Shown here in pieces: positions 10,004-50,420 of a stretch of DNA of 64,000 bases. Position 1 is the first letter of the stretch. Each line of letters opens with the position of its first letter. Origin of the DNA: a phage; sequence record PZ179883.1, one strand, 5' to 3'. Under the pieces are notes generated by a model that made no database searches, was not told where the DNA came from, and saw only the letters and a list, made by a program, of their open reading frames with translations. Position numbers and translations under genes: made by a program.

Positions 10004-10312
10004 TTAGTCTTCTATGATATCTCTATCATATCCAAGTGAAATGAGAGTTTCTTTGAAATGTTTAATGTTCTTTTGTCTAGAATCATTAATGAAAATGACT
10101 GGATAACGAATGTTAAGAGATGTGAATCCAGCGCGTTTAGCAAGAGATACAATCAGTGGACGATCATACTCAATCTTACCGTTATTTGTAAGAACTTTAT
10201 AGAAAGTAAAAGGAGCATTGAGCTCCTTTAGAAGTTTTGTAACTGATTGACATCCAGGACAACGACCTACTTCATCTGGAATTCCATAGACTTCAATCTT
10301 ATTTTGTTTCAC
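10004..10312 (-). CDS. nrdH: glutaredoxin-like protein (NrdH-like)
   Basis: 102 aa with CPGC redox motif; GTG start with AAGGAA RBS; adjacent to nrdG/nrdD. Confidence 0.6.
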   Translation of the reverse strand: MKQNKIEVYGIPDEVGRCPGCQSVTKLLKELNAPFTFYKVLTNNGKIEYDRPLIVSLAKRAGFTSLNIRYPVIFINDSRQKNIKHFKETLISLGYDRDIIED

Positions 10313-10641: not shown

Positions 10642-11112
10642 TTAATCATGTTTCCACACCCCATCGGTATTTGACCAAAGTCGCTGATTATCTGATCCTC
10701 GCCACAGCTTTTTGGTCGGAAGATTTTTCTCATACTTCCCATCAATAATAACATCAACATATTTAAGCATTTCTAGTTGTTTAATATCTTCAAATTTATA
10801 TCCTGTCCACAACCAAATGCTTTTATTGGGATAAAGATTTTTTACTGTTTGAACAATGCAATGAACAACATCTCGGTTATCAGGATAGAGAGGGTCTCCT
10901 CCAGTTATAGTTAATCCTTCTATATAATCATTATTCAAACATTCAATTAATTGTTCTAGTGTTTCACCAGTGAATGGAACGCCATTTCTAGCATTCCATG
11001 TTGATTTATTATAACAACCTTCGCATTTATGCAAACAACCTGTAACGAAAAGAACGACCCTGCATCCAGGGCCATTCACAAAATCGCAGGGATAAAATCT
11101 ATCGTAATTCAT
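10642..11112 (-). CDS. nrdG: anaerobic ribonucleotide reductase activating protein (radical SAM)
   Basis: 156 aa; CxxxCxxC-type cluster region GCLHKCEGCYN; overlaps nrdD stop. Confidence 0.85.
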   Translation of the reverse strand: MNYDRFYPCDFVNGPGCRVVLFVTGCLHKCEGCYNKSTWNARNGVPFTGETLEQLIECLNNDYIEGLTITGGDPLYPDNRDVVHCIVQTVKNLYPNKSIWLWTGYKFEDIKQLEMLKYVDVIIDGKYEKNLPTKKLWRGSDNQRLWSNTDGVWKHD

Positions 11113-12926
11113 TGGTGTTTAACCCTATGCATGATTTCTTTATTTTTGCCAAGATTAAATCCACGTTCATTCGGATTTCCCAAATAACCACAAGTTCTTC
11201 TTATTGTGTTCATCTTTTTAGGATCAGTTTCTCCACAAATAGAACAAACAAATCCGTTTTCAGTAGGAGTCATTTCATGGGTACTTCCACATGTAAAACA
11301 TTTATCTACTGGCATATTAACACCAAAATAATCTAAATGTTGTGCAGCATAATCCCATACAGCCTCAAGACCCTTTAGGTTATTTTTCATATCAGGAAGT
11401 TCAACATAAGAAATGTGACCACCTGTCGCAATGAAATGATATGGGGCTTCGCGAGAAATCTTTTCAAATGGAGTAATATTTTCTTCTACTGAAACGTGGA
11501 AACTGTTAGTATACCAGCCTTTATCGGTAACATCTTTTACACTTCCATATTTTTCGGTATCAAGTTTACAGAAGCGATAGCACAGGTTTTCAGCAGGAGT
11601 AGAATACAAACTAAAAGCAAATCCAGTTCTTTCAGTCCACTGCTTAAGACGAGCATTCATTTTAGTTAAAATTTCTTGTCCAATATCACGACCGACAAGA
11701 ATATTCAATTCGTGAATACCGATGTATCCTAGGGACACTGAACTTCTACCGTTTTTAAATAACTCAATTATATCGTCATCAGGTTTAAGACGAACCCCGA
11801 ATGCACCTTCTTGGTAAAGAATAGGAGCAACAGTCGCTTTAACTCCTTTTAAGGAACTAATTCTACACATCAATGCTTCAAAACATAAATCCATTCGTTC
11901 ATTGAACAATTCAGTAAATTTCTGTTCATTGAACTGTGTTCCAATATAAGAATCTAACGCAATACGAGGAAGATTCAGTGTTACAACGCCAAGATTATTA
12001 CGTCCATCAAGAATTTCATTACCAGTCGAATCTTTCCATACACTTAAGAAACTGCGGCAACCCATTGGAGAAACAGGAATAGATGAACCTGTGATAGCTT
12101 TATTGTTCTTAGCCGAAATGATGTCAGGATACATTCTTTTACTTGCACACTCTAGAGCAAGCTGCTTAATATCATAGTTCGGATCGTCTTTATAAAGATT
12201 AACACCTTCTTCAACGAACATAACAAGCTTAGGGAAAATAGGAGTTATCCCATCACGACCAAGACCTTTAATACGATTTTTCAGAATTGCTTTCTGAATC
12301 ATTCGTTCAGTCCAGTCAGTTCCCGTACCAAATGTAATTGTTACAAAAGGCGTTTGTCCGTTTGAACTAAAGAGAGTGTTTACTTCATATTCATAAGCTT
12401 GAAATGCATCGTATACGTCTTTTTCTGTTTTAGATTGAGCATAATTCAACGCATCAGCGATTTGCCATTTTTCTGCATCCTCAATATGTTTTGCATAGGT
12501 GCGTTTAACATAAGGAGAAAGTACTTTATCTACATTCGCAAAAGTCGTTCCGCCGTATTGATGGGAAGCAACCTGTGCAGTAATTTGTGCCATAATTGCA
12601 GTAGCAACGCCAATTGATTTAGGAGTTTCAATCTGTGCATTACCGAGCTTAAACCCGTTCTCAAGCATTCCTTTTAAATCTACTAAACAGCAATTAGTAA
12701 ATGGAAGAGCAGGGGAATAATCAATATCATGGAAATGAATAATTCCGCTTTCATGCGCTTTCATAATAAAAGACGGGACCATATTTTTGGCAATGTGTTT
12801 AGACACAATACCAGCCATAAGGTCCCGTTGAGTTGGAAAAACACGAGAATCTTTATTAGCATTCTCGTTTAAAAGGTCTTTATTAGTTTTATGAATCAAT
12901 CCTTCAATTTCTTTTTCAATTGTCAT
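11109..12926 (-). CDS. nrdD: anaerobic ribonucleoside-triphosphate reductase
   Basis: 605 aa continuous ORF; C-terminal glycyl-radical region RTCGYLGNP and zinc ribbon CFTCGS...CSICG. Confidence 0.9.
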   Translation of the reverse strand: MTIEKEIEGLIHKTNKDLLNENANKDSRVFPTQRDLMAGIVSKHIAKNMVPSFIMKAHESGIIHFHDIDYSPALPFTNCCLVDLKGMLENGFKLGNAQIETPKSIGVATAIMAQITAQVASHQYGGTTFANVDKVLSPYVKRTYAKHIEDAEKWQIADALNYAQSKTEKDVYDAFQAYEYEVNTLFSSNGQTPFVTITFGTGTDWTERMIQKAILKNRIKGLGRDGITPIFPKLVMFVEEGVNLYKDDPNYDIKQLALECASKRMYPDIISAKNNKAITGSSIPVSPMGCRSFLSVWKDSTGNEILDGRNNLGVVTLNLPRIALDSYIGTQFNEQKFTELFNERMDLCFEALMCRISSLKGVKATVAPILYQEGAFGVRLKPDDDIIELFKNGRSSVSLGYIGIHELNILVGRDIGQEILTKMNARLKQWTERTGFAFSLYSTPAENLCYRFCKLDTEKYGSVKDVTDKGWYTNSFHVSVEENITPFEKISREAPYHFIATGGHISYVELPDMKNNLKGLEAVWDYAAQHLDYFGVNMPVDKCFTCGSTHEMTPTENGFVCSICGETDPKKMNTIRRTCGYLGNPNERGFNLGKNKEIMHRVKHQ

Positions 12927-13396
12927 TTTAAACTCTTTCTAAGCTGCTTCTTAAATGAAGCTATTAACTGTGTTTTGGTGTCAGATTCATTATATTCAAA
13001 TCCTCTTTGAAGCATCTCGGCCATCATTTCCTCTTTTCCTAAACGAGAAAATTCCTTTGATTTATCTCCAACAAAGTTAGGGTGAATATTGTTTTGGGTG
13101 TAATCGGATTTTAAATAAGTAAGTAAATTTTCTAACCATTCAAGATAATCAACACCTTGTCCCTTTAAGCCAGAACGATTAAATTTATGTTTCATTTGAC
13201 CTTCTGCGGCATTGCAGAGATTACAAAGCAATCCACGTACCTTTCCTGCTTTTGGTCCATTTAATTCATGGTCATGATCAAGATGATTAGCTTGAACATC
13301 AGGATTTAGTTCTCGTTGGCAAATTAAACATTTACCGTTTTGTGCATCATAAAATTTCTGTTTTTCTTCTTTATATAATTTGCCAGTCAATAACAT
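12923..13396 (-). CDS. 49: endonuclease VII (Holliday junction resolvase)
   Basis: 157 aa, MLLTGKLYKEEKQKFYDAQNGKCLICQRELNPDVQANHLDHDHELNG... matches recalled T4 gp49. Confidence 0.9.
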   Translation of the reverse strand: MLLTGKLYKEEKQKFYDAQNGKCLICQRELNPDVQANHLDHDHELNGPKAGKVRGLLCNLCNAAEGQMKHKFNRSGLKGQGVDYLEWLENLLTYLKSDYTQNNIHPNFVGDKSKEFSRLGKEEMMAEMLQRGFEYNESDTKTQLIASFKKQLRKSLK

Positions 13397-13402
13397 AATA
13401 AA

Positions 13403-13427
13403 ACCCTTACCTTAAATAGATAAGGGT
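13403..13427 (-). other. stem-loop immediately upstream of gene 49 start
   Basis: ACCCTTA / TAAGGGT 7 bp stem with 11 nt loop, 6 nt before the gp49 ATG. Confidence 0.4.
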
Positions 13428-13438
13428 ATTTATTATTT

Positions 13439-13490
13439 TTAAGTATTGTAAAACATTCGATGCAATCGTTTATACTGTCGAATCATCTTT
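13439..13490. repeat. direct repeat copy A (about 50 bp, about 84 percent identical to 13652-13700)
   Basis: AAGTATTGTAAAACATTCGATGCAATCGTTTATACTGTCGAATC aligns with copy B. Confidence 0.7.
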
Positions 13491-13615
13491 TTAGTAGGAC
13501 GAGAATAGGTTCCTACGCAAGTGGTCATATGAGGGTCCGTAGAATGTCCTTTAATAAAAAGTTTCCAAACCTTACCGCCATTTAACTTTTCAGTATAAAC
13601 CAATTCGGTTTTCAT
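13439..13615 (-). CDS. small ORF (58 aa) sharing C-terminal 14 aa with pin
   Basis: ATG 13613-13615; MKTELVYTEKLNGGKVWKLF...IRQYKRLHRMFYNT; 3' end lies in a ~50 bp direct repeat of the pin 3' end. Confidence 0.35.
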   Translation of the reverse strand: MKTELVYTEKLNGGKVWKLFIKGHSTDPHMTTCVGTYSRPTKKMIRQYKRLHRMFYNT

Positions 13616-13651
13616 TAAAATGTCCTGTCAGAAAAAGAATTTTGAGTTTTT

Positions 13652-13700
13652 TCAAGTATTATAAAACATTTGATGCAATCGCTTATATTGCCGAATCTTT
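13652..13700. repeat. direct repeat copy B (3' end of pin)
   Basis: AAGTATTATAAAACATTTGATGCAATCGCTTATATTGCCGAATC. Confidence 0.7.
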
Positions 13701-14137
13701 TGGTCAGAAAAAGAAATTTGAGTTTCAAGCCATTCAATGTACTCTGCGGCAGCTTGCATCAGGTTACCTTCATAGCCATCGTTATTTTCTTGCGCAGCTA
13801 ATTTAGCTAATGCGTATGAAATACGTTCACCTTGAAAAGAGGCTTCAGGCTTCTGAACATCTTGGCTAGTTCTCTCTACAACTTCTTCAATTTCGCCATT
13901 TTCGACTGATTCAGTATTCCACAAGCACCAATACGTAATTGGCTTATCGTAGATGTTAATAATCTTTCCGTCGGAAAGTTCAATTTCAATAATTCCAGTA
14001 TCAGGTTCTATATCATCTTCACATTCTTTTGCAAGTTCACGAACTTTAAAGACAGTACCTGCACTAAGTTCCGGCCAGTAATTACACAGCCCTATATCAA
14101 CACGATTAATTCTAAACCACTTATCTACTGTAATCAT
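13652..14137 (-). CDS. pin: PinA-like protein (candidate Lon protease inhibitor)
   Basis: 161 aa from ATG 14135-14137 (track start 14155 is TTG); size and position next to gene 49 match T4 pin; no motif confirmation. Confidence 0.5.
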   Translation of the reverse strand: MITVDKWFRINRVDIGLCNYWPELSAGTVFKVRELAKECEDDIEPDTGIIEIELSDGKIINIYDKPITYWCLWNTESVENGEIEEVVERTSQDVQKPEASFQGERISYALAKLAAQENNDGYEGNLMQAAAEYIEWLETQISFSDQKIRQYKRLHQMFYNT

Positions 14138-14259
14138 GTCCCATCTCCATATCAATTAAGTCATTTATCGTTGGTTCATTATATACTGTTTCTTCATCAG
14201 TGTAAACCGGTTCTTCCGGCTCTGGCTCTACAGTTTCCCATCTAGCCGCCCACCAAGGT

Positions 14260-14469
14260 TTAACCCCGAAGCTTATTAAGTTCTTCATAATCAATCCAGG
14301 ATTCTAATCCTGATGGCAAATCAGATTCAATTTCCCAAAGAAGTTCTTCAATTTTCTGAAGACGATCTAATTCTTCGGCTGGAATAGTAACCATTGACGG
14401 AGTTCTTGATACACTAATATCGTAAATCATATTTACCCCAGTTTGACCATGCAATCGCCATATTTCCAT
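14260..14469 (-). CDS. hypothetical acidic protein (69 aa)
   Basis: Track ORF. Confidence 0.4.
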   Translation of the reverse strand: MEIWRLHGQTGVNMIYDISVSRTPSMVTIPAEELDRLQKIEELLWEIESDLPSGLESWIDYEELNKLRG

Positions 14470-14648
14470 TTAGAAATAGACTTTTCACCATTAGAATAAT
14501 AAACTTCGAGTTTAGCACGATTATTTTTAATTTGAATAACCTTGGCTGTCATCAAAGTTCCATACCCGTAATAAACTGCGACTTCATCACCTACATATAC
14601 CGCGCTTCCGCGGTAGTCATGGATATAATCAGTTCCTTCGAGCATCAT
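14433..14648 (-). CDS. hypothetical protein (71 aa)
   Basis: Track ORF, start overlaps nrdC stop. Confidence 0.45.
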   Translation of the reverse strand: MMLEGTDYIHDYRGSAVYVGDEVAVYYGYGTLMTAKVIQIKNNRAKLEVYYSNGEKSISKWKYGDCMVKLG

Positions 14649-14908
14649 TTAAAATATTCTCGCAGTTGGTCAAATCCACCAATATGACTTCCATCAGGAG
14701 CAAATACCTGGGGCATTGTCAAGCCGATTTGAGTATCACGACCTAGTTTAGTCAGAAGCTCAGCAATTTTCTCATCATCAAAAACACCTTTTTCCGGCAT
14801 AATGTTGATAAATTCAAACGGCTGTTTCTTCACGGTCAAAAGACGTTTTGCATTATCGCAATACACACATTTATGAATGTTGCTATCATAACCATATACT
14901 TTAAACAT
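14645..14908 (-). CDS. nrdC: glutaredoxin/thioredoxin NrdC
   Basis: 87 aa, CVYC redox motif, MFKVYGYDSNIHKCVYCDNAKRLL... Confidence 0.85.
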   Translation of the reverse strand: MFKVYGYDSNIHKCVYCDNAKRLLTVKKQPFEFINIMPEKGVFDDEKIAELLTKLGRDTQIGLTMPQVFAPDGSHIGGFDQLREYFK

Positions 14909-14909
14909 A

Positions 14910-15200
14910 TTATTCCTTAATTCCTAGTACTTGTTTAAAAATCTCGTCATAATCAAGACTTTGGCCCGTTTGTTCTTTATGTTTGTATATAATATCACTT
15001 ACTTCTGATAGCATATTTTTATATGAACGAGTTAAAGCAGATTTAAGCACGCTATATCTATCAGGAAATTTACCATGTTCATTATAATAAGCTATTGCTA
15101 ATTCACGGACTGCCTTTTCAGCAGTCTCCATATATTCTTTACGCTTGGTCATTTTCTTCTCGGTTAAATCGGTGTTTGCAATGACGACATTTATATTCAA
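14910..15200 (-). CDS. hypothetical protein (96 aa or shorter)
   Basis: Track ORF; overlaps upstream ORF, start probably internal. Confidence 0.4.
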
Positions 15201-15456
15201 GCTCTGGTTTACGCCAGTTAATCAATTGGACCTGTTCAGTACCACATTTTGGGCAGTTCGGAACATTCTTAGAAGCCCTTTCGCGGCGTTCAACCATAAC
15301 CATAATGGCATCCCAAGCAGGAGGTTTAAAGTCTAGATCGTCACAGCCATGAATCTTTCCACGCATTTCTAAATCGTCTTCTTCACCAGCCATAATAATT
15401 TTAATTAGACTGGAATTACTTGAAGCTGCAATATCTTCTAATAAGCGCTTTTTCAT
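15139..15456 (-). CDS. zinc-ribbon protein (105 aa)
   Basis: CPKCG...CRHCKH four-cysteine motif. Confidence 0.5.
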
Positions 15457-16382
15457 TTCAATACCTCAATAGCATTACGTAAACCATTTGCTTTGGCGGT
15501 TAAAGCCTTAAGAACTTTAGTATGCTCTTCAATCTGTTTTTCAACTTCAATTAAGCGTGTATTAAGATATTCGCGTTCTTCACTCAGGTTATCAATCTTT
15601 TCTACTTTAGGTTCTTTTACAACTGGCTTATATGTATTAGGGTTCTTCAGTTTAATTAGAATGCGTGAACTGTACAGCATTGAACCATTATCTTCGGTTT
15701 CGTCATACATTTCCACTACGTCCATCATCTCCACCATCGTGCAGAGTTTATAAGACAACGAACGAATAGTTTTGTTGTGCTTATTAATTTCTCTAGCTGT
15801 CATGGTGCCGAGATTACGTGAGTAATAATAAGGAACCTGGATATTAATTAATACTGATGAACCACCTGGCTTGTGTGTTACTTCATCAGCAATAACCCAG
15901 TCCTTAACATGAACTGTATTTGTACGGTCATCGCCCGCGGTAAATAGTTTACGAGCATGCTTAAAAAGCATATTCACTTGGTCATTGAATTGACAAGCGA
16001 ATTTATCAGCAAATTTAGTTTCAGGAATGGTAGATAACCAATCAGCCAAATGGGTCTTTTTAACATCGTTAACAATAGTAAATTCAACCAAATCGGTTAT
16101 AGATGTCGCAGATTTAATGAAGCTCGGCTTCATAAAGTTTTTAATGTTATCACTAGCTACAGTAGAAGATAACAGACGAGAACGTTTAAACCATTGAAGC
16201 AAATTGCCTAACGAATGAGAATAAGCGTTTTGAGTATCTTTACAGATATGATTTTCCTGGCTAACATATTGAAGGAAATCACGAAGAATATTATTAATTA
16301 CTGCTCTGTGCCCGATCTGATAATTACGATGTTTAGTAATAAGACTGTCAAAATAATCAATATAATGTTTACGAGTTTTCAT
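15453..16382 (-). CDS. coiled-coil-tailed paralog family member 1 (309 aa)
   Basis: ATG verified; N-terminal MKTRKHYIDYF, Pro/Lys linker KPVVKEPKVEK, C-terminal heptad coiled coil. Confidence 0.6.
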   Translation of the reverse strand: MKTRKHYIDYFDSLITKHRNYQIGHRAVINNILRDFLQYVSQENHICKDTQNAYSHSLGNLLQWFKRSRLLSSTVASDNIKNFMKPSFIKSATSITDLVEFTIVNDVKKTHLADWLSTIPETKFADKFACQFNDQVNMLFKHARKLFTAGDDRTNTVHVKDWVIADEVTHKPGGSSVLINIQVPYYYSRNLGTMTAREINKHNKTIRSLSYKLCTMVEMMDVVEMYDETEDNGSMLYSSRILIKLKNPNTYKPVVKEPKVEKIDNLSEEREYLNTRLIEVEKQIEEHTKVLKALTAKANGLRNAIEVLK

Positions 16383-16434
16383 GTTCTTCTCACTTAGTTA
16401 ATGATTTATACTCCGAGCCATCCTTGGCTTTAAA

Positions 16435-17436
16435 TTACTTAATTAACTGTAAAGCTTGTTCAAGACGATCCAGGCGATTAACAGATTCTTCCCAAATCCT
16501 TTTAGCCTGTTCATATTCTTTCTGCGCTTTATTAGAAATTTCTAGAGCTTCTTTATAAGCTTTTTCTAATGCAATAACTTCTGGACGAATTTCTACCGAT
16601 TCAGGTGAATCATCAAGATTATCCATTAGTTCCTCAAGGGTAGTTTCTTCTTTAGGAGTATTCACAATTTCTTCGCATTTTTGTTGGTAAATTTCTTTAT
16701 CAGTAGGTGAGTACGCACACTTTACTTCACGAAGACTAACTACAATTTTGTATCCTTCCCAACCGCACACATTCTTAAAAGGATAAGTATGAATATTTTC
16801 GACTGTTTCCATACAAAGTAGTGCAGTCTCTAATTGACGAGTTATATCACTAGCAATTGAGAAAAATTTATTAATGTTCTTTTGATTAGCTTCTGGTGTA
16901 AAAAATTCATAATTCACAAAAATAGCTGCTTTATTTTTATCAAGCTCATATTCTTTTATGATAATCATATCAGAAGCCCAAGGATGAATTTGACGATAAT
17001 CACCATAGCATAATTTAGAAGCTGATTTTAGAATTTGCTTTTTGAAAAGTCTGAAATTACTAATCCAACGACGAGTAAAAATATTCTCAGGGTCTTCTTT
17101 ATTATTAAGATGATAAGAATTAACATCACCGAACCAATTATATCCTACTACATCTTTGGTTCGTTTAATTTCTTTCCCAAAATTACCAAGAATATCCTGA
17201 TTAACTAAATATGAAAGAAGACGAGAACCTTTAAAGGTTTCCTTAATATCACCTTTATCTTCGCGACTAGAAATTTTATGAACTTCATGAATAAATTTGC
17301 TGGAAGAAACAATGCTTACATCAATATTATTGAGCCATTGATTGATAATGGAAATCACGCTATTCTGACTAGACACAGGTTTAACTTTATCATCAATAAC
17401 GCTGTTGAATGATTTGATATATTCATTACGAGTCAT
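16435..17436 (-). CDS. coiled-coil-tailed paralog family member 2 (333 aa)
   Basis: ATG with GAGGAG RBS, downstream of early promoter; shares RLFKKQILKSASKL motif and C-terminal coiled coil. Confidence 0.6.
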   Translation of the reverse strand: MTRNEYIKSFNSVIDDKVKPVSSQNSVISIINQWLNNIDVSIVSSSKFIHEVHKISSREDKGDIKETFKGSRLLSYLVNQDILGNFGKEIKRTKDVVGYNWFGDVNSYHLNNKEDPENIFTRRWISNFRLFKKQILKSASKLCYGDYRQIHPWASDMIIIKEYELDKNKAAIFVNYEFFTPEANQKNINKFFSIASDITRQLETALLCMETVENIHTYPFKNVCGWEGYKIVVSLREVKCAYSPTDKEIYQQKCEEIVNTPKEETTLEELMDNLDDSPESVEIRPEVIALEKAYKEALEISNKAQKEYEQAKRIWEESVNRLDRLEQALQLIK

Positions 17437-17464
17437 ATTAATCTCCTCAGTAGAAAGTAAGAAT

Positions 17465-17494
17465 ATTATACCACATCCCTGTGGTAAAGTAAAC
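17465..17494 (-). promoter_or_regulatory. early promoter (GTTTAC, 18 nt, TGGTATAAT)
   Basis: GTTTAC 17489-17494, TATAAT 17465-17470; 28 nt upstream of ATG 17436. Confidence 0.65.
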
Positions 17495-18516
17495 TAGTTC
17501 AGTGCATTTAGTGCATTGTTCAGTTTAGAACGTTGCTTCGTGAGATTTTTGACTTTTTCTTGAGCTTTTTCTAGCATCTTTTCAGCTTCTAGCACTTCAT
17601 TAGTTGCTTTAACGAGTTCATCATCTACTGCCTTGATAGACTTCTCAATCGCATCTGCATGCCATTTTTCAACAGGTTTAAGACTCGGATTTTCAATAGG
17701 AAGAAAATTCACTTTATTGAATTTCCATGCATCTTTATTACCTGAACTATACATCCAAAATTTAGGATCGTTTGATGAGTAATTGGATAAATTTAAGTTA
17801 TCTTGCACTTCCTGCTTTTTCTCTTGTGTGACTTCGTCCTTTCTCAAAAAATCGTATTTAAATGAAACGATCATATCAAGTTCATATGTTGTTGTATGTT
17901 CCCAATTTCGCTCAAAACGAGGTAAAATCTTAGATTGAACAGCAGCAACAACATCCATATACTTAAATGCTTCTGTTAACTGCGATTTAAGGCATTCACA
18001 AATTGAAAGAGAATTTTTTGTATTAGGTTTAAAGCTAATTCGTGCAGTTCTATTATTTTCTTTTAATGGTCTTACTTCCATCTGAAGAGTATAACCATCA
18101 AATTTCAGATTCTTTAAGTTAATATCAGAACCTTTTAATCGACTAGCCGTCGACAAAATTTGCTTTAATTGTCTACGGAACAGAGCAATAAATCTCCATT
18201 CAATACGATAATGATTTGGATTGAAAAATCCAGATGATAAATCGACCTTACTTTGACCAACGCCTTGAACAAATAGAGGATTTTTATAATCAATAGTTTT
18301 ACAGAAATCGGTGAGCTGTTCACGAGCAGTCATTTGTGTAATATACCCTGCTTTACTAAAATTACGCACCCATTCACTGCTATTCGTATACTTAAAGTGA
18401 TGAATAACACGATTAACTTTATCAGGGTCTAAATTATTTTCACACAAAAATGTCATAACATCACGAGTATAGCTGGCATTACGAACCATATCTTCAATTT
18501 GAGAACGAGTTTTCAT
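17494..18516 (-). CDS. coiled-coil-tailed paralog family member 3 (340 aa)
   Basis: ATG verified; ALFRRQLKQILSTASRL motif; C-terminal coiled coil. Confidence 0.6.
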   Translation of the reverse strand: MKTRSQIEDMVRNASYTRDVMTFLCENNLDPDKVNRVIHHFKYTNSSEWVRNFSKAGYITQMTAREQLTDFCKTIDYKNPLFVQGVGQSKVDLSSGFFNPNHYRIEWRFIALFRRQLKQILSTASRLKGSDINLKNLKFDGYTLQMEVRPLKENNRTARISFKPNTKNSLSICECLKSQLTEAFKYMDVVAAVQSKILPRFERNWEHTTTYELDMIVSFKYDFLRKDEVTQEKKQEVQDNLNLSNYSSNDPKFWMYSSGNKDAWKFNKVNFLPIENPSLKPVEKWHADAIEKSIKAVDDELVKATNEVLEAEKMLEKAQEKVKNLTKQRSKLNNALNALN

Positions 18517-18524
18517 GGTGTTCC

Positions 18525-19412
18525 TTAAGATTTAAGTAAATCAACGATTTTAATTAATTTTTCACGCTCAGATTTAGCTTTACTACTCAATCCAGATAGT
18601 CTGAAAATTTCATCATCATATTGCTGAATAGAAATATTTAGCTCTTCAATCTGCTTATTAAAATAAGCAATTTGTTCAGAATGTTTTTCATTACTGCGAA
18701 CTGGTACAGGTTTTGTAGGTAATTTAGTTGAACTGGATTCATCTGGGCGATAAATTAAAATACAACTTGAACCGATAGGGCATTTTGCACCAGATGAATA
18801 TTCTAATGTTCCAGCTTCTTTTAAAACTTCAAAAGCTAAACAGAGATGATGCCCCATATTAACATAATCTGTAGAGCGAGCTCTGATGTAATAATCATCT
18901 CCACGAGTACTAAATTTAAAGCATTTAAGGTCTTCTGTATTATTGGTCTTAAAAATCATTTGTTTATCTAGACCTTTAGCTAATCGAGCGCCTAATGCTA
19001 ATAATCGTCGTTGATTTTCCCACAAATCCGCTATCATTTGGTCAAATGATAATTTCGGCATTAGTCGACCATAAAGGTCATATCCTTTATTATAATTGCG
19101 AAGGATTTCACTCGCATTAATACGAGACAACGCTCCAATTTTATTAAGGGCTTTCATGATGCGATTAGATAAACCCATTCCAGATCCGTTTGTTCGTTGC
19201 AAATGTTTATCTAATCCAAACCCAATATCAACTTTAAATTTATCTAAAATTTCAGCATGAACATCTCTGTCAATAACATTCAAATCCAAAGTTGGGTTAA
19301 ATCTATGAAAAAATTTATCTGGCTCTCCACGACGAAGTACAGTCCATTCATTTAATTTTTTATTAACTAAAGATTTAATTACTGCATTGACATTATTAAT
19401 TACTACTGACAT
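18525..19412 (-). CDS. coiled-coil-tailed paralog family member 4 (295 aa)
   Basis: ATG verified; RRLLALGARLAKG motif; C-terminal coiled coil. Confidence 0.55.
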   Translation of the reverse strand: MSVVINNVNAVIKSLVNKKLNEWTVLRRGEPDKFFHRFNPTLDLNVIDRDVHAEILDKFKVDIGFGLDKHLQRTNGSGMGLSNRIMKALNKIGALSRINASEILRNYNKGYDLYGRLMPKLSFDQMIADLWENQRRLLALGARLAKGLDKQMIFKTNNTEDLKCFKFSTRGDDYYIRARSTDYVNMGHHLCLAFEVLKEAGTLEYSSGAKCPIGSSCILIYRPDESSSTKLPTKPVPVRSNEKHSEQIAYFNKQIEELNISIQQYDDEIFRLSGLSSKAKSEREKLIKIVDLLKS

Positions 19413-19423
19413 ATTTTTCTCAC

Positions 19424-19828
19424 TTAATTTTCAATTTTACTAAATACACAGAATATGATGGAAAAGACTATATAAGCACCGCATACAGATTGAACTAATA
19501 CCATTCCAAAGAACCAAACAATATTATCAAACAATGTCTGTTTTACGTCGAAAGGACGTAAACTTACAGTAATATTATCACCTTTTTCTATTGAAGAATA
19601 CATCTCTGGGGAAATATATTCACTAAATCTATAACCGTCTTTGAGTTCATATACAGCAATAAACGATAAACTAGACCCCTTTCCTTGAGTTCCTGTAATA
19701 GTATTAACTACAGTAACATCATAATCTTTATAATGCATATAATCATTAATAGCATAATAACCATATGCAACTACTACACATAAACAACATATCAATAAAT
19801 TCAATCTTTTAATTATCAACTGTTTCAT
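19424..19828 (-). CDS. membrane protein (134 aa, two hydrophobic helices)
   Basis: N-terminal LLICCLCVVVAYGYYAI and C-terminal FFGMVLVQSVCGAYIVFSIIFCVF. Confidence 0.5.
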   Translation of the reverse strand: MKQLIIKRLNLLICCLCVVVAYGYYAINDYMHYKDYDVTVVNTITGTQGKGSSLSFIAVYELKDGYRFSEYISPEMYSSIEKGDNITVSLRPFDVKQTLFDNIVWFFGMVLVQSVCGAYIVFSIIFCVFSKIEN

Positions 19829-19883
19829 AATAATCTCAATTAAAAGGGCTTAGAACCATTATACCATCCTTGGTATAAAGCGG

Positions 19884-20411
19884 TTATGCGAGTACCGTCT
19901 TTAACCGTTCTTCAAACTTCCGAAGAGTATTTTGGCGTTCAGCTCTTTGCTTTTTGTAAGTTTCAATACGCTCTGAAATGAGAGAGTATCGTTCATTTAC
20001 TGATTCTTTCATAAAATCAGGAATTTCACGAGAAGCTTTAATCTCGTCAAATTTATCAATAACAGCTTGCTCTTCAGCAATTAAGTTATCATACATTAAA
20101 ATATCTTTCTTGATGAACTCAATATCTTCTTGAGTTACACGAGACATTTTAGATGCTTTATCCTTTTTGTACTGTTCGTTAGTATCACGAGACCAGTGTA
20201 ATGTACGATTTTTATTCGTATTCTTGTAAATTTCTACAATACCGATCTCATCAATAATAACGATCCAATTCCAACGGGATTTGTAAATTTGTCCTCCATC
20301 AACAGTGATTTCACCTCCGATTGAGATGTCGTTAAAGAACTTGCTTTGCGCTTCAGATTTAAATTTGCCATCGTTGTAATTTACCAAGTTGAAAATATCT
20401 TTAGCGTTCAT
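19884..20411 (-). CDS. hypothetical protein (175 aa)
   Basis: ATG 20409-20411 with GGAGGAA RBS directly downstream of early promoter. Confidence 0.55.
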   Translation of the reverse strand: MNAKDIFNLVNYNDGKFKSEAQSKFFNDISIGGEITVDGGQIYKSRWNWIVIIDEIGIVEIYKNTNKNRTLHWSRDTNEQYKKDKASKMSRVTQEDIEFIKKDILMYDNLIAEEQAVIDKFDEIKASREIPDFMKESVNERYSLISERIETYKKQRAERQNTLRKFEERLKTVLA

Positions 20412-30170: not shown

Positions 30171-30491
30171 TTATTCTTTAAATCTAATCAATTTATTCAT
30201 AGACTTTGAAACTTCTGCACGAACCTCATGTAGATTTTTGAGCTGTTCAAGACGCTGCTCATAGTAAGCAATTTCATCTTCTTCGAGACAGTCCTGTGAA
30301 TCTTCTTTAAGATAACGTGCATAGTCCTGGAAAGCGTTACGAACTACTTCCTGGAAGTCATCAAGACTTTGAATTTTCTTAGGAGCAACAGATACACGAC
30401 GAGGGGCAGTATAATACTCATAACCAAACCCTGCGCTTAATTGAGCCATTAGTATTTTTCCTCTGGTTGGAACACTGCGCGACAAGCCCAC
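30171..30491 (-). CDS. hypothetical protein (106 aa)
   Basis: Track ORF. Confidence 0.45.
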
Positions 30492-30715
30492 ATACTGGCT
30501 TCTTTGAGTTTCATTTTAGCAATAGTTAACTGATCGAGGCTTTCGGCGTAATTCTTCGCGAGTTCATCATCTTCACAGCTATCAAATGCTTCCCAGAATT
30601 CATCATATAAAGCATCAAAGATAAGCCCTAAACGAACTTCAGCATCTTTGATAGCATTCACTTTACTGATTTTATCGTCAGTATGTGGTTTATAACCTTT
30701 AATGTCTTCAATCAT
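30449..30715 (-). CDS. small acidic protein (88 aa); candidate Acb2-type nucleotide sponge by synteny only
   Basis: Second ORF after regB, the position of T4 vs.4; no sequence confirmation. Confidence 0.3.
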
Positions 30716-30929
30716 ATTTTACTTCCTCACCTGTTCCCAAATCATATTCAACTAAACGAATAGGTTCATGAATGCCATATCCTTGAACAGAAATTTCTGT
30801 CGTAGGATAAATTCCATTAATATCACCCATGTTCCACGCTTCATTAAATTGCTGTTCGCCTGAATTACTAAACCACTCGGCGAAAGCATTTAGCACATCT
30901 TCAGAACCTTCAATAATTATCTTTGCCAT
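30708..30929 (-). CDS. hypothetical protein (73 aa)
   Basis: Track ORF. Confidence 0.4.
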   Translation of the reverse strand: MAKIIIEGSEDVLNAFAEWFSNSGEQQFNEAWNMGDINGIYPTTEISVQGYGIHEPIRLVEYDLGTGEEVKYD

Positions 30930-31303
30930 TACAAACTCTCAGTAAAGGTACGAGCGATAACGTCGCGCTGCTGTTCCGGAGTCAGAGAGTTAAAGCGAAC
31001 TGCATAACCGGATACACGGATGGTCAGCTGCGGATATTTTTCCGGATGCTTAACTGCATCTTCCAGAGTTTCGCGACGCAGAACGTTAACGTTCAGGTGT
31101 TGACCACCTTCAATTTTAACTGTAGGTTGTGTTTCAATTTCAATTTCACGGGCATGCAAACCATAGAAAATTTCTGGGTCTACAAAAGAGTCCTCTTTAA
31201 AAGTTTTAGAGACAATAATTCGTGCTTGAATACCATCTTCAAAATAAATAGTACCTTTATGCGTGCCTTCAAGAATTTGATATGCTTTCATATAACCTCT
31301 CAA
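30929..31303 (-). CDS. autonomous glycyl radical cofactor (GrcA/YfiD-like)
   Basis: C-terminal [25 protein letters not shown], the glycyl-radical loop of PFL/GrcA; a T4 YfiD homologue is known. Confidence 0.75.
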
Positions 31304-39317: not shown

Positions 39318-39321
39318 AAAT

Positions 39322-39408
39322 TGGTGGGGAGTGGTGGAGTCGAACCACCCGAGTCGCAATGACAATGGATTTACAGTCCACACCGCTACCTCTACGGGAT
39401 AACTCCCC
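39322..39408 (-). tRNA. tRNA-Tyr (anticodon GTA), long variable arm, CCA encoded
   Basis: Manual fold: anticodon loop CTGTAAA, T-arm GGTGG-TTCGACT-CCACC. Confidence 0.8.
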
Positions 39409-39417
39409 AAATTAATT

Positions 39418-44805: not shown

Positions 44806-45257
44806 TATGCCCCCTTAAAGCCAAGAGCTCGTAATCCATCTTCTGTTAGAATTCTAAATTTTATTCCACGCTTTTCAGCTAAAGATTGTGCTGCTTTCCA
44901 TTTGTCGGTATTAACAGAATATGTATAAATTTCATTCATAAATCTTTTCTTCGCTGCGGTTGTTAGATGTGCTGGTTTAACTGGTGGTTGTGTTTCTTTT
45001 TTAGGTTTTATTTCAATAAAAAATTCTTGTCCAGAAGAATCTTTCATCCAAATATCCATGAAGTATCTACGTTTTTTCCCTTCTGCATTACAAAAATAAG
45101 GAATTACTGCTGTTTCACTACCCCATGCAATAATTTCTGGATTTTTATCTAACCATTCAAAAAAGAATTTTTCCCAATTTGATCTATACGTAATTTTTTT
45201 AGGGTCACCTCTATACTTTGATATATTTTTAGGAACCCATTTTCCAGAATATGCCAT
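44805..45257 (-). CDS. 4: head completion protein gp4
   Basis: 150 aa; ATG 45255-45257 with AAGGAG RBS; late promoter box upstream. Confidence 0.65.
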
Positions 45258-45268
45258 TGGATTCTCCT

Positions 45269-45276
45269 TATAAATA
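45269..45276 (+). promoter_or_regulatory. late promoter box TATAAATA for gene 53
   Basis: Plus-strand TATAAATA 29 nt upstream of gp53 ATG; divergent from the gene 4 box. Confidence 0.6.
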
Positions 45277-45283
45277 GATAATA

Positions 45284-45291
45284 TATTTATA
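45284..45291 (-). promoter_or_regulatory. late promoter box TATAAATA for gene 4
   Basis: Minus-strand TATAAATA 27 nt upstream of gp4 ATG. Confidence 0.6.
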
Positions 45292-45304
45292 AACAGGAGG
45301 GCCC

Positions 45305-45895
45305 ATGCTCTTTACATTTTTTGATCCGATTGAATATGCGGCCAAAACGGTGAATAAAAACGCGCCGACTATTCCTATGACAGATATTTTTAGAAACTAT
45401 AAAGACTATTTTAAACGCGCTCTTGCGGGATACCGCTTACGTACTTATTATATCAAAGGTTCACCACGCCCGGAAGAATTAGCAAATACTATATATGGAA
45501 ATCCACAGTTGTATTGGGTTTTATTGATGTGTAATGATAATTATGACCCGTATTATGGATGGATTACTTCACAAGAAGCAGCTTATCAAGCATCTATACA
45601 AAAATACAAAAATGTAGGTGGAGACCAAATAGTATATCATGTGAATGAGAACGGTGAAAAATTTTATAATTTAATATCATACGATGATAATCCATATGTT
45701 TGGTATGATAAAGGTGATAAAGCTAGAAAATATCCTCAATATGAAGGAGCACTTGCTGCTGTTAATACGTATGAAGATGCTGTTATTGAAAATGAAAAAC
45801 TTCGTCAAATAAAAATAATAGCAAAATCAGACATCAATTCATTTATGAACGACCTTATACGTATAATGGAGAAATCTTATGGAAATGATAAGTAA
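45305..45895 (+). CDS. 53: baseplate wedge protein gp53
   Basis: 196 aa; AGGAGG RBS; late promoter TATAAATA upstream. Confidence 0.7.
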   Translation: MLFTFFDPIEYAAKTVNKNAPTIPMTDIFRNYKDYFKRALAGYRLRTYYIKGSPRPEELANTIYGNPQLYWVLLMCNDNYDPYYGWITSQEAAYQASIQKYKNVGGDQIVYHVNENGEKFYNLISYDDNPYVWYDKGDKARKYPQYEGALAAVNTYEDAVIENEKLRQIKIIAKSDINSFMNDLIRIMEKSYGNDK

Positions 45896-47606
45896 TAACC
45901 TTAATTGGTTTGTTGGTGTTGTTGAAGATAGAATGGACCCATTAAAATTAGGTCGTGTTCGTGTTCGTGTAGTTGGTCTGCATCCACCTCAAAGAGCACA
46001 AGGCGATGTAATGGGTATTCCAACTGAAAAATTACCATGGATGTCAGTTATTCAACCTATAACTTCTGCAGCAATGTCTGGAATTGGAGGTTCTGTTACT
46101 GGACCGGTAGAAGGAACTAGAGTTTATGGTCATTTTTTAGACAAATGGAAAACTAACGGAATTGTCCTTGGCACGTATGGTGGAATAGTTCGCGAAAAAC
46201 CGAATAGACTTGAAGGATTTTCTGACCCAACTGGGCAATATCCTAGACGTTTAGGAAATGATACTAACGTATTAAACCAAGGCGGAGAAGTAGGATATGA
46301 TTCCTCTTCTAACGTTATTCAAGATAGTAACTTAGACACTGCAATAAATCCCGATGATAGACCACTATCAGAGATTCCAACCGATGATAATCCAAATATG
46401 TCAATGGCTGAAATGCTTCGCCGTGATGAAGGATTAAGACTAAAAGTTTATTGGGATACCGAAGGATATCCGACAATTGGTATTGGTCATCTTATCATGA
46501 AGCAACCAGTTCGTGATATGGCTCAAATTAATAAAGTTTTATCAAAACAAGTTGGTCGTGAAATTACTGGAAACCCAGGTTCTATTACAATGGAAGAAGC
46601 GGTAGCTTTATTTGAACGTGATTTGGCTGATATGCAACGTGACATTAAATCACATTCTAAAGTTGGCCCAGTTTGGAAAGCAGTTAATCGTTCTCGTCAA
46701 ATGGCATTAGAAAATATGGCATTTCAGATGGGTGTCGGCGGTGTAGCTAAATTTAACACAATGTTAACTGCTATGTTAGCCGGAGATTGGGAAAAAGCAT
46801 ATAAAGCTGGTCGTGATTCATTGTGGTATCAACAAACAAAAGGCCGTGCATCCCGTGTTACCATGATTATTCTTACAGGTAATTTGGAATCATACGGTAT
46901 TGAAGTGAAAACACCGGCTAGGTCTTTGTCAGCAATGGCTGCTGCTGTAACAAAGTCTTCTGATCCAGCTGACCCTCCTATTCCGAATGATTCGAGAATT
47001 TTATTTAAAGAACCTGTTTCTTCATATAAAGGTGAATATCCGTATGTTCACACAATGGAAACTGAAAGCGGTCATATTCAGGAATTTGACGATACCCCGG
47101 GACAAGAACGATACAGATTAGTCCATCCGACTGGAACATATGAGGAAGTATCACCGTCAGGAAGAAGAACAAGAAAAACTGTTGATAATTTGTATGATAT
47201 AACAAATGCTGATGGTAATTTTTTGGTAGCTGGCGATAAAAAGACTAATGTCGGTGGATCAGAAATTTATTACAACATGGATAATCGTCTTCACCAAATA
47301 GATGGAAGCAATACGATATTTGTGCGTGGCGATGAAACTAAGACAGTTGAAGGTAATGGAACTATCCTAGTCAAAGGTAATGTTACTATTGTAGTTGAAG
47401 GTAATGCTGACATTACAGTTAAAGGAGATGCTACTACTTTAGTTGAAGGAAATCAGACTAATACAGTAAATGGAAATCTTTCTTGGAAAGTTGCTGGGAC
47501 AGTTGATTGGGACGTTGGTGGTGATTGGACAGAAAAAATGGCATCTATGAGTTCTATTTCATCTGGTCAATACACAATTGATGGATCGAGGATTGACATT
47601 GGCTAA
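45879..47606 (+). CDS. 5: baseplate hub/tail lysozyme gp5
   Basis: 575 aa; internal lysozyme domain (MLRRDEGLRLKVYWDTEGYPTIGIGHL) and C-terminal VxGxxxx beta-helix repeats. Confidence 0.95.
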   Translation: MEMISNNLNWFVGVVEDRMDPLKLGRVRVRVVGLHPPQRAQGDVMGIPTEKLPWMSVIQPITSAAMSGIGGSVTGPVEGTRVYGHFLDKWKTNGIVLGTYGGIVREKPNRLEGFSDPTGQYPRRLGNDTNVLNQGGEVGYDSSSNVIQDSNLDTAINPDDRPLSEIPTDDNPNMSMAEMLRRDEGLRLKVYWDTEGYPTIGIGHLIMKQPVRDMAQINKVLSKQVGREITGNPGSITMEEAVALFERDLADMQRDIKSHSKVGPVWKAVNRSRQMALENMAFQMGVGGVAKFNTMLTAMLAGDWEKAYKAGRDSLWYQQTKGRASRVTMIILTGNLESYGIEVKTPARSLSAMAAAVTKSSDPADPPIPNDSRILFKEPVSSYKGEYPYVHTMETESGHIQEFDDTPGQERYRLVHPTGTYEEVSPSGRRTRKTVDNLYDITNADGNFLVAGDKKTNVGGSEIYYNMDNRLHQIDGSNTIFVRGDETKTVEGNGTILVKGNVTIVVEGNADITVKGDATTLVEGNQTNTVNGNLSWKVAGTVDWDVGGDWTEKMASMSSISSGQYTIDGSRIDIG

Positions 47607-47640
47607 TATACTTCCAATGAGCGCTGATTTAGGAGAATCC

Positions 47641-48135
47641 ATGGAAGGTTCTTCTATCGACGTCACCTTTACCGCTCAATTAGAAACAGGTGAAACGTTA
47701 GTATCTATAAATATAACTAGTTACGAAGAAACTCCTGGGGTTTTAGTAGAAGAAAATCGTTTATATGGAACGTATGAATCTGTATTTGGATTTGGAAATG
47801 ATGCGTTGAAATATCGTTTAGATAATGAATTTAAAACCGCTGCTTCATGGGAAGACCTTCCAACTGATTCTAATACTCAGTTATATTTATGGAAAGCTCC
47901 TCAAAACCTTCAGAAGACATTCACTTACGAAGTAACATTAATATATGACTACCAAGAACAAGGTGAATCTGGAGGTTCTGGCAGTAATTCTAGGTCATCT
48001 TCTGATACTACTGAACCAACGAATCCTCCAGCTCCAATAAGAAAAACTCTTGTTAAAAATTACACAAAAACTATAGTTGGAAATTGGAGTCGTTGGGCTA
48101 ATAAATTGAGAAGCTATGTGTATGAGAGGCCATAA
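47641..48135 (+). CDS. 5.1: gp5.1-like protein (164 aa from ATG with AGGAGAA RBS)
   Basis: Track ORF 47578-48135 trimmed to the only ATG with a strong RBS. Confidence 0.5.
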
Positions 48136-48429
48136 ATGTCAGGATTAAGTTATGATAAGTGTGTTACTGCCGGCCATGAAGCATGGCCTCCAACGGTTGT
48201 GAATGCTACACAAAGTAAAGTATTCACCGGAGGAATTGCTGTTCTTGTAGCAGGCGATCCAATTACAGAACATACAGAAATTAAAAAGCCATATGAAACA
48301 CATGGCGGAGTGACACAACCTAGAACTTCTAAGGTATATGTCACTGGAAAGAAAGCTGTTCAAATGGCTGATCCAATATCATGCGGTGATACTGTGGCTC
48401 AGGCATCATCTAAAGTATTCATTAAATAG
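48136..48429 (+). CDS. 5.4: PAAR-like baseplate spike tip protein gp5.4
   Basis: 97 aa, position immediately before gene 6. Confidence 0.65.
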
Positions 48430-48437
48430 GATTTAAA

Positions 48438-50420
48438 ATGGCAAATACCCCTGTAAATTATCAATTAACAAGAACAGCAAATGCTATTCCCGAGATATTC
48501 GTCGGGGGTACGTTTGCTGAAATAAAACAAAACCTCATTGAATGGCTTAATGGCCAAAATGAATTTTTGGATTATGATTTTGAAGGCTCAAGATTAAACG
48601 TTCTGTGTGACCTTTTGGCTTATAATACGCTGTACATTCAGCAGTTTGGTAATGCTGCTGTGTATGAAAGCTTTATGCGTACTGCTAACTTACGTAGTTC
48701 AGTAGTTCAAGCGGCACAAGATAATGGATATTTACCTACTTCAAAATCAGCTGCTCAAACTGAAATTATGCTAACTTGTACAGACGCATTGAATAGAAAT
48801 TACATTACTATTCCTCGTGGTACTCGCTTTTTAGCATATGCAAAAGATACTTCAGTTAATCCTTACAACTTTGTATCTACTGAAGATGTTATTGCTATTC
48901 GTGATAAAAATAACCAATATTTTCCACGTTTAAAATTGGCCCAGGGACGTATAGTAAGAACTGAAATCATTTATGATAAATTAACACCTATTATCATTTA
49001 TGACAAAAATATTGATAGAAACCAGGTTAAACTATATGTTGATGGAGCAGAATGGATTAACTGGACAAGAAAGTCAATGGTTCATGCTGGTTCTACATCA
49101 ACAATTTACTACATGCGTGAAACTATTGATGGAAATACTGAGTTTTATTTTGGTGAAGGCGAGATTTCTGTTAATGCGGCAGAAGGAGCATTGACTGCTA
49201 ATTATATTGGAGGTCTTAAACCTACCCAGAACTCTACGATTGTTATTGAGTACATCAGTACTAACGGTGCAGATGCGAATGGTGCAGTCGGATTTTCATA
49301 CGCAGATACATTAACAAATATAACTGTCATCAATATTAATGAAAACCCAAACGATGACCCAGATTTTGTTGGGGCAGATGGCGGCGGCGATCCAGAAGAT
49401 ATTGAACGTATTCGCGAATTGGGTACTATTAAACGCGAAACCCAGCAACGCTGCGTAACTGCGACTGACTATGATACATTCGTTTCAGAGAGATTTGGTT
49501 CTATTATTCAAGCCGTTCAGACTTTCACTGATTCTACTAAACCTGGTTATGCATTTATTGCTGCTAAACCTAAATCAGGATTGTATTTAACTACTGTGCA
49601 GCGTGAAGATATTAAAAATTATCTCAAAGATTATAATTTAGCTCCTATTACGCCATCAATTATTTCTCCTAATTATCTTTTTGTTAAGACTAATTTAAAA
49701 GTCACATATGCTTTAAATAAGCTGCAAGAATCAGAACAGTGGCTAGAAGGTCAAATAATTGATAAAATTGATCGTTATTATACCGAAGATGTAGAAATTT
49801 TTAACTCATCTTTCGCTAAATCTAAGATGTTGACATATGTAGATGATGCAGATCATTCTATCATTGGCTCATCCGCGACAATTCAAATGGTACGTGAAGT
49901 ACAAAACTTCTATAAAACGCCTGAAGCGGGTATTAAATACAATAATCAAATAAAAGATCGTTCTATGGAATCTAATACGTTTTCATTTAATTCTGGACGA
50001 AAAGTTGTAAATCCTGATACTGGTTTAGAAGAAGATGTATTATATGACGTTCGTATAGTATCAACAGACCGAGATTCTAAAGGAATTGGCAAAGTTATTA
50101 TTGGTCCATTTGCTTCTGGCGATGTTACAGAAAATAAAAACATTCGTCCATACACGGGCAACGATTTTAATAAATTAGCAAATTCTAGTGGACGCGACAA
50201 ATACTATGTTATCGGTGAAATAAATTATCCAGCTGATATGATTTATTGGAATATCGCTAAAATTAATTTAACATCCGATAAATTTGAGGTTCAGACTATT
50301 GAACTATATTCTGACCCAATAGACGATGTTATTTTCACACGTGATGGTTCACTGATTGTATTTGAAAATGATTTACGCCCGCAATACTTAACTATCGATT
50401 TGGAGCCTATATCACAATGA
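48438..50420 (+). CDS. 6: baseplate wedge protein gp6
   Basis: 660 aa, T4 order 5-6-7-8. Confidence 0.85.
   Translation: MANTPVNYQLTRTANAIPEIFVGGTFAEIKQNLIEWLNGQNEFLDYDFEGSRLNVLCDLLAYNTLYIQQFGNAAVYESFMRTANLRSSVVQAAQDNGYLPTSKSAAQTEIMLTCTDALNRNYITIPRGTRFLAYAKDTSVNPYNFVSTEDVIAIRDKNNQYFPRLKLAQGRIVRTEIIYDKLTPIIIYDKNIDRNQVKLYVDGAEWINWTRKSMVHAGSTSTIYYMRETIDGNTEFYFGEGEISVNAAEGALTANYIGGLKPTQNSTIVIEYISTNGADANGAVGFSYADTLTNITVININENPNDDPDFVGADGGGDPEDIERIRELGTIKRETQQRCVTATDYDTFVSERFGSIIQAVQTFTDSTKPGYAFIAAKPKSGLYLTTVQREDIKNYLKDYNLAPITPSIISPNYLFVKTNLKVTYALNKLQESEQWLEGQIIDKIDRYYTEDVEIFNSSFAKSKMLTYVDDADHSIIGSSATIQMVREVQNFYKTPEAGIKYNNQIKDRSMESNTFSFNSGRKVVNPDTGLEEDVLYDVRIVSTDRDSKGIGKVIIGPFASGDVTENKNIRPYTGNDFNKLANSSGRDKYYVIGEINYPADMIYWNIAKINLTSDKFEVQTIELYSDPIDDVIFTRDGSLIVFENDLRPQYLTIDLEPISQ

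Follow-up and report, generated by a model that had tools for sequence, protein, structure and literature searches.

A host-identical radical domain in the vs.6 (grcA-like) gene of a T4-like phage suggests gene conversion by the host chromosome

We identified a mosaic gene for a glycyl-radical cofactor in a 64,000-nucleotide stretch of phage DNA (sequence record PZ179883.1, referred to throughout as the window). The gene is the orthologue of T4 vs.6/Y06I and encodes an autonomous glycyl-radical cofactor, so that both the gene and its function are already known. Its 5' half is of phage type, whereas the 3' half contains 175 nt without a single mismatch to chromosomal grcA of E. coli. We consider it likely that the product repairs host pyruvate formate-lyase (PFL) and that the radical-domain half of the gene has been overwritten by host grcA. 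The preliminary description, which had recognized a phage-encoded glycyl-radical cofactor, re-identifies a gene characterised in 2001 and adds nothing by itself. What is added here, modestly and in testable form, is a half-gene that is identical to the host's and seems to have been converted repeatedly. The features of the locus are these:

30929..31291, minus strand: grcA-like gene, orthologue of T4 vs.6/Y06I, 120 amino acids plus stop (open reading frame, Pfam, NCBIfam, PDB and synteny with T4)
31296..31301, minus strand: Shine-Dalgarno sequence GAGAGG, 4 nt before the ATG (read from the sequence)
31112..31291, minus strand: phage-type 5' half, codons 1-60, GC 0.32, 17 of 51 aligned residues identical to E. 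coli GrcA
30939..31113, minus strand: host-identical patch encoding the glycyl-radical domain (EGGQH...RTFTE), 175 nt, zero mismatches to E. coli chromosomal grcA
30992..31018, minus strand: RVSGYAVRF glycyl-radical loop, residues 92-100 (alignment to GrcA and PflB)
30929..30938, minus strand: phage-type 3' tail, with synonymous departures from the host at 30934, 30935 and 30938 in GAGAGTTTGTAA and the TAATG overlap with vs.5

The open reading frame ends at 30929, as the preliminary description had it, and translation from the ATG at 31291 gives 120 residues, equal to the length of T4 vs.6. The start had been placed at 31303, the TTG chosen by the ORF finder. We moved it to the ATG because the TTG (31301-31303) falls within the Shine-Dalgarno sequence and the T4 gene length fits the ATG. 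GAGAGG also overlaps the vs.7 stop codon (31300-31302), and at the other end of the gene the sequence TAATG at 30929 joins its stop to the start of vs.5. Nothing above chance resembled a promoter or terminator of the gene's own, and there is no MotA box between it and denV. Given these overlapping stop and start signals and the lack of a promoter-like site, the gene looks co-transcribed within a packed block of early genes. WWTGCTTYA, a motif resembling the MotA box, is found 34 times in the window where 12.8 would be expected, a count reached in 0 of 100 shuffles and fitting the middle promoters of T4; none of these occurrences lies just upstream of the grcA-like gene.

The product is a small stand-alone protein of the GrcA type (120 amino acids, approximately 14 kDa) that carries a glycyl-radical domain and lacks the catalytic cysteine pair. 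Indeed none of the 120 residues is a cysteine, and the protein therefore cannot be a catalytic glycyl-radical enzyme. The sole Pfam domain is Gly_radical (E=2.2e-18, residues 60-101). The best PDB match is E. coli GrcA (6owr, E=4.6e-42), followed by PflB (1cm5, E=4.8e-26), and homology to E. coli GrcA is detectable across residues 22-120. With E-values ranging from 1e-18 to 1e-42, a chance match or spurious reading frame was ruled out. The best NCBIfam model is the GrcA equivalog TIGR04365 (IPR011140), which matches protein residues 20-120 at model positions 25-126. Its score of 154.6 bits stays below the cut-off of 170 because the N-terminal half is diverged. The loop sequence RVSGYAV is of the PFL type, and comparison to solved structures aligns the radical glycine, Gly95 (codon GGT at 31007-31009), with GrcA Gly102 and PflB Gly734. 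The reading of RVSGYAVRF as the GrcA/YfiD loop thus holds up in the alignment with E. coli GrcA, where loss of the glycine had been named as the outcome that would overturn it: the glycine is kept.

The window belongs to a genome of the genus Tequatrovirus (T4-like) and shares 96-99% identity with many coliphages of the T4 type. The gene order, denV, vs.8, vs.7, vs.6, vs.5, vs.4, vs.3, regB, vs.1, is that of the T4 annotation, in which vs.6 is annotated as GrcA at the syntenic position. In Karamvirus, Jiaodavirus and Mosigvirus (Tevenvirinae) the gene likewise lies in the denV-regB block, flanked by vs.7 and vs.5. T4 Vs.6 is also 120 residues long, has the same neighbours (denV, vs.8 and vs.7 upstream; vs.5, vs.4, vs.3 and regB downstream) and shares 118 of 120 residues with the window protein (98.3%). 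The preliminary description proposed a T4 homologue as a comparison partner, which is correct as far as homology goes; synteny and protein identity make the window gene its orthologue. The two substitutions are T54, which is P in T4, and R73, encoded here by the same codon as in E. coli but replaced in T4 by H (CAT). T4 vs.6 carries the host-identical 3' patch too (179 of 183 nt).

Two genes downstream, the vs.4 orthologue (30449-30715, minus strand) matches the Acb2/Tad1 hairpin domain of Pfam (3.3e-18). This domain marks a family of anti-CBASS/anti-Thoeris nucleotide sponges, and the gene is annotated 'anti-CBASS protein 2' in one related phage record. A GrcA 99.2% identical to the window protein is present in PV654520.1, labelled 'Pseudomonas phage vB_PSGBLB0006' (142 kb), although either the host label or the assembly of this record looks doubtful.

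At the DNA level the gene is a mosaic. Aligned with the host gene, the phage gene is approximately 50% identical through codon 60 and then matches perfectly for 175 nt. GC content rises from about 0.30 to 0.50-0.53 in the 3' part, the two halves averaging 0.32 (5') and 0.49 (3'). All 60 residues of the C-terminal half are identical to those of E. coli GrcA (YfiD, 6owr), a protein of the same size class with the same radical loop. The N-terminal half is 7 residues shorter than its E. coli counterpart. The promoter and 5' region of E. coli grcA are absent from the phage gene, which sits in an early-gene block with translational overlaps. Using blastn, 30929-31113 matches chromosomal grcA at 98.4% in all 5426 of 5426 complete E. 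coli genomes, and the part of the gene upstream of 31113 has no match in these genomes. In megablast searches against E. coli the patch is the sole protein-coding stretch of the 64-kb window with a match. Positions 1-20000 and 45001-64000 gave none, and 20001-45000 gave the grcA patch together with tRNA-like matches in a few records. Among the matches listed, the only other one is an 89.5% match at approximately 39319-39411 to a plasmid-borne tRNA-Tyr, presumably reflecting a phage tRNA cluster.

Over the 60 codons of the 3' half, dS between the patch and E. coli is 0.07, or 0 without the last three codons. This compares with 0.07 between E. coli and another Escherichia species, 0.40 between E. 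coli and Citrobacter amalonaticus, and 1.1 between E. coli and Salmonella. A composition step within the gene combined with near-identity to the host allele at synonymous sites is the kind of mosaic described for cyanophage psbA. Three other accounts of the identity were rejected. pflB is not the donor, as the best place in all 5426 genomes is grcA. Convergence in codon usage does not fit a step within one gene, and the copies in T5-like coliphages have saturated dS despite a similar protein. Finally, transfer from phage to host is contradicted by bacterial alleles that follow bacterial relationships and by a patch GC that is host-like. Judged from these alleles and this composition, the direction of transfer is from host to phage.

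The last ten nucleotides of the gene (30929-30938) remain phage-type. The three differences from E. coli grcA in this tail are all synonymous (GAGAGTTTGTAA in the phage and GAAAGCCTGTAA in the host). The tail was never converted in the phages examined, and the same is seen in Klebsiella phages. The segment is probably the ribosome-binding region of vs.5, and the location of the three positions within this presumptive region would explain why it stays phage-type.

Homologues of vs.6 are present in 1589 phage records that include T4-like, T5-like, Aeromonas, Vibrio and jumbo phages, and dN is approximately 0 in the C-terminal half. When compared with a panel of grcA genes from 81 bacterial species, only the Tequatrovirus and Mosigvirus copies reach 97-98% identity to a host gene, that of E. 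coli. Near-identity to any panel gene is absent in Karam-, Slopek-, Pseudoteven-, Krisch-, T5-like, Aeromonas and jumbo phages. For the copies of the other groups, identity is 0.63-0.88 to E. coli grcA and 0.70-0.89 to the best panel gene; the longest perfect runs measure 15-35 nt, a length typical for unrelated bacterial pairs. T5-like coliphages carry no host-identical tract. A search of all phages with Salmonella grcA gave no match of at least 95%, and in the lack of a Salmonella-type patch the phenomenon is evidently not universal. Several 'viral' contigs in IMG/VR contain the 3' ends of bacterial-type grcA or pflB together with bacterial N-terminal sequence and a GC of about 0.5; these probably represent host DNA binned as viral and not phage genes.

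Between the window and Mosigvirus, identity is 52-85% in the flanking genes, approximately 90% in the 5' half of the gene and 98-100% in the patch. The corresponding dS values are 0.39 for the 5' half and 0.12 for the 3' half (Fisher P=0.03). A patch older than the split of the two genera would predict approximately 8 synonymous changes on the window lineage, and 0 are seen in 57 codons (P=2e-4). Moreover, two polymorphisms within the patch, C/T in an Arg codon and A/G in a Gln codon, have the same alleles among phages and among E. coli strains. These shared polymorphisms are suggestive of conversion, although both are transitions and could be homoplasies. Taken together the coliphage data suggest recurrent conversion but do not strictly prove it, since constraint on synonymous sites could also lower divergence.

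A second host-type patch occurs in Klebsiella phages of the genus Jiaodavirus. Phage KP179 has the same GC step (0.35 to 0.54), and it is only 0.88-0.89 identical to any bacterial gene of the 81-species panel. KP179 could on this basis have been taken as a negative case; a reciprocal search with a Klebsiella-type grcA, which found matched Jiaodaviruses, overturned that reading. Scanning metagenomes with a 26-mer from KP179 identified three enterobacterial contigs with bacterial-type grcA (57% GC, up to 190 kb), in which the gene adjoins a gene for an SrmB-type helicase. The donor sequence was taken from a contig of this metagenomic origin (OGRX01000014.1), and 'Klebsiella-type' is accordingly not a species assignment. 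Queried against all phages, this gene matched 15 records at 95-99%, and all 12 of the 12 among the matches listed are Klebsiella T4-like phages. The matches cover nt 202-374, the same segment as the coliphage patch.

We compared six Jiaodaviruses in this region. Their 5' halves are 97-100% identical and their 3' halves 92-100%, with a mean pairwise difference of 0.047 in the 3' halves versus 0.019 in the 5' halves, yet the 3' halves encode an invariant protein segment. The last 12 nt or so are phage-type in all six. Perfect-match tracts to the Klebsiella-type gene differ in their end points and have the following lengths:

KEN37: 134 nt
UTI-K1, pzk-kv4 and JIPh_Kp122: 80 nt
LilPanda: 62 nt
KP179: 29 nt

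KP179 and LilPanda have identical 5' halves (1.000) and 3' halves at 0.951. A patchwork of this kind would be expected from recurrent gene conversion in which the tract ends vary.

Two host-type patches, one of E. coli type and one of Klebsiella type, thus occur in two phage clades, together with the patchwork of tracts within Jiaodavirus. On balance we favour the view that the radical half of vs.6 undergoes concerted evolution with the host chromosome. Host grcA fragments would repeatedly overwrite the phage copy, probably by copy-choice repair on degraded host DNA, so that the T4-like phages of E. coli and Klebsiella each carry tracts of the allele of their current host. A rival history, which we regard as rather unlikely, is that one recent transfer took place in the ancestor of Tequatrovirus and Mosigvirus and another in Jiaodavirus, each then spread by recombination among phages, and that there is no ongoing conversion by host DNA. 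The T-even phages do recombine readily among themselves, the whole gene is more conserved between Tequatrovirus and Mosigvirus than its flanks, and the two coliphage genera share both the 5' boundary (…AAAATT|GAAGGT…) and the unconverted 3' tail, all of which two single transfers would readily account for. They account less well for KP179 and LilPanda, whose 5' halves are identical and 3' halves different, for Klebsiella-type tracts that vary in length from 29 to 134 nt and in where they end, for phage polymorphisms that coincide with E. coli alleles at two sites, and for the zero synonymous change in 57 codons of the gene in the window.

Under recurrent conversion, an old resident gene of the phage would have retained its diverged 5' half while homologous recombination with the chromosome of the current host, probably on more than one occasion, exchanged its radical-domain half for host grcA sequence. 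Such overwriting would leave a radical domain identical to the host's in both protein and DNA. A plausible route lies in the biology of T4-type phages, which break host DNA into pieces and use recombination to replicate. The 3' end of a phage strand may invade a homologous host fragment and copy it, so that the host sequence is rebuilt in phage nucleotides. The outer limits of the tract would be set where homology between phage and host ends, namely at the codons for EGGQH on one side and at the end of the gene on the other.

A precedent is found in the cyanophage genes psbA and psbD, for which intragenic recombination between host and phage was detected through patchiness in GC content (Zeidner 2005; Sullivan et al. 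2006, PMC1484495). As with vs.6, these are host-derived metabolic genes of T4-like phages that have patchy GC and exchange segments between host and phage copies. The vs.6 case is different in that it concerns virulent phages of enteric bacteria that degrade host DNA, and in that exchange is confined to half of the gene, its outer limit being fixed at the point where homology ends. Furthermore, the coliphage donor is identified to species level and only the host-to-phage direction is seen. We found no description of host-to-phage conversion for vs.6 or grcA in the searchable literature, a body of text that excludes the T4 genome review and the 2001 paper, where it was possibly noted.

The patch shows that virulent T-even phages acquire short stretches of host chromosome by homology. 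If recurrent conversion is correct, the 175-bp patch is a natural and measurable reporter of DNA flow from host to phage in a phage thought to destroy host DNA, and also a genomic marker of recent host use. It is relevant to the question of how auxiliary metabolic genes remain compatible with the host, to host prediction from phage genomes, and to the case made for the safety of strictly lytic therapeutic phages, namely that these exchange no DNA with their hosts.

The function of the protein rests on published biochemistry of T4 Y06I. Wagner et al. (2001), as summarised in PMC8683613, showed for both T4 Y06I (Vs.6) and E. coli YfiD (GrcA) that the PFL-activating enzyme installs a glycyl radical on the protein and that the protein restores the activity of oxygen-cleaved PFL in vitro. 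According to PMC8683613 and PMC13450708, these two are the only validated 'spare part' proteins so far. The PFL-activase radicalises the peptide RVSGYAV and not the ribonucleotide reductase (RNR) loop RVCGYLG (PMC13450708). The repair of oxygen-damaged PFL proposed in the preliminary description is thereby borne out by publication for T4 Y06I, which differs from the window protein at 2 of 120 residues (PMC8683613). The segment of PFL that the vs.6 product replaces is the C-terminal glycyl-radical domain of PflB (1cm5/1h16). Residues 58-120 align with PflB 697-759 at approximately 78% identity, compared with 100% for the C-terminal half of GrcA, and the region of the catalytic Cys418/Cys419 of PflB is absent from the phage protein.

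We suggest that the gene is expressed early in infection within the tightly packed denV-vs transcription block. Host PflA would recognize the RVSGYAV loop and convert Gly95 to a glycyl radical, as published for T4 Y06I. The activated 14-kDa module would then dock on a PflB whose C-terminal radical domain had been cut off by oxygen and bring back PFL activity, the in vitro part of this step having been published for T4 Y06I. During infection under microaerobic conditions or fluctuating oxygen, production of acetyl-CoA/ATP and of formate may in this way be kept going, and the formate could also feed the phage's own formate-dependent class III RNR, NrdD/NrdG. Such a supply of formate through PFL repair may be relevant where oxygen fluctuates, as in the gut. 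No report of an in vivo phenotype for a vs.6 deletion was found in the searchable literature.

The genes for the class III enzyme and two redoxins lie elsewhere in the window:

11109..12926, minus strand: nrdD, class III ribonucleotide reductase (Pfam NRDD, 1.7e-171), loop RTCGYLG with Gly580
10642..11112, minus strand: nrdG, radical-SAM activase of NrdD (Pfam Fer4_12, 1.4e-48, and Radical_SAM)
10004..10312, minus strand: glutaredoxin-fold gene at the nrdH position (Pfam Glutaredoxin, 4.6e-5)
14645..14908, minus strand: glutaredoxin-fold gene at the nrdC position (Pfam Glutaredoxin, 4.2e-7)

The preliminary description placed the cofactor gene alongside nrdD and nrdG and two redoxins. All are present in the window, but at a distance of 16-21 kb, so they are not neighbours. 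It also saw in them an investment in anaerobic host metabolism, a reading that needs qualifying for nrdD and nrdG, which serve synthesis of phage dNTPs and not the metabolism of the host. The most plausible tie between GrcA and nrdD/nrdG is formate, which is the product of PFL and the reductant of class III RNR. In the class III enzyme of the E. coli type, formate donates the hydrogen (Mulliez et al. 1995, a work listed in PMC13450708).

Two other roles for the protein have to be weighed against PFL repair. It could be a decoy directed against the host, soaking up the PFL-activase or occupying PflB and so redirecting the flux of pyruvate. Phage-encoded mimics are frequent, the C-terminal half mimics the radical domain of the host perfectly, and, as no host 5' region was copied, expression escapes host regulation of the FNR type. 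We consider a decoy highly improbable, because Y06I restores PFL activity in vitro and does not inhibit it (PMC8683613), because host GrcA with the same sequence is a repair factor, and because the vs.6-type gene co-occurs with the formate-consuming NrdD. Alternatively the protein might be a spare radical domain for the phage NrdD, itself cleaved by oxygen at its glycyl radical, and not for host PFL. The genome does encode two glycyl-radical proteins, the nrdDG clusters of Aeromonas phage PX29 and a jumbo Yersinia phage have a grcA-like gene within or beside them, and the authors of an older comparative study (PMC1524935) speculated that the gene acts in nucleotide metabolism. Yet the vs.6 product has no significant similarity to the window NrdD (BLASTP E=2.6), its loop is RVSGYAV where NrdD has RTCGYLG and departs from the pattern R-x-C-G-Y-L-G, and activase specificity follows the loop sequence (PMC13450708). 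In addition, its C-terminal half is identical to host GrcA at 60 of 60 residues and to PflB at approximately 78%, and reconstitution of PFL has been demonstrated with T4 Y06I (PMC8683613). With its RVSGYAV loop and its lack of similarity to NrdD the vs.6 product is of the PFL type, and service as a back-up for NrdD is extremely improbable.

Genomic neighbourhoods in other phages are consistent with the formate link. In Aeromonas phage PX29 (1359-4947) the cluster nrdD-nrdG-vs.6-nrdC-nrdH is found, with the grcA-like gene overlapping nrdG by 23 nt; the same genes lie scattered across 21 kb in the window. A jumbo Yersinia phage has the order nrdD-x-grcA, two genes apart, and among the T5-like phages both NrdD and grcA occur. 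This recurring association of grcA with class III RNR in unrelated phage groups suggests that PFL repair secures formate for phage dNTP synthesis. Linkage is not general, however, as the two genes are 18 kb apart in the window. In T5-like phages (601-969) the grcA homologue lies inside a tRNA gene region, directly after tRNA-Ile and tRNA-Met, and no nrdD occurs within 20 kb. The nrdD gene of T4 contains a group I intron. In the window nrdD is one uninterrupted reading frame of 605 amino acids, and some relatives match it in two pieces with a homing endonuclease between them.
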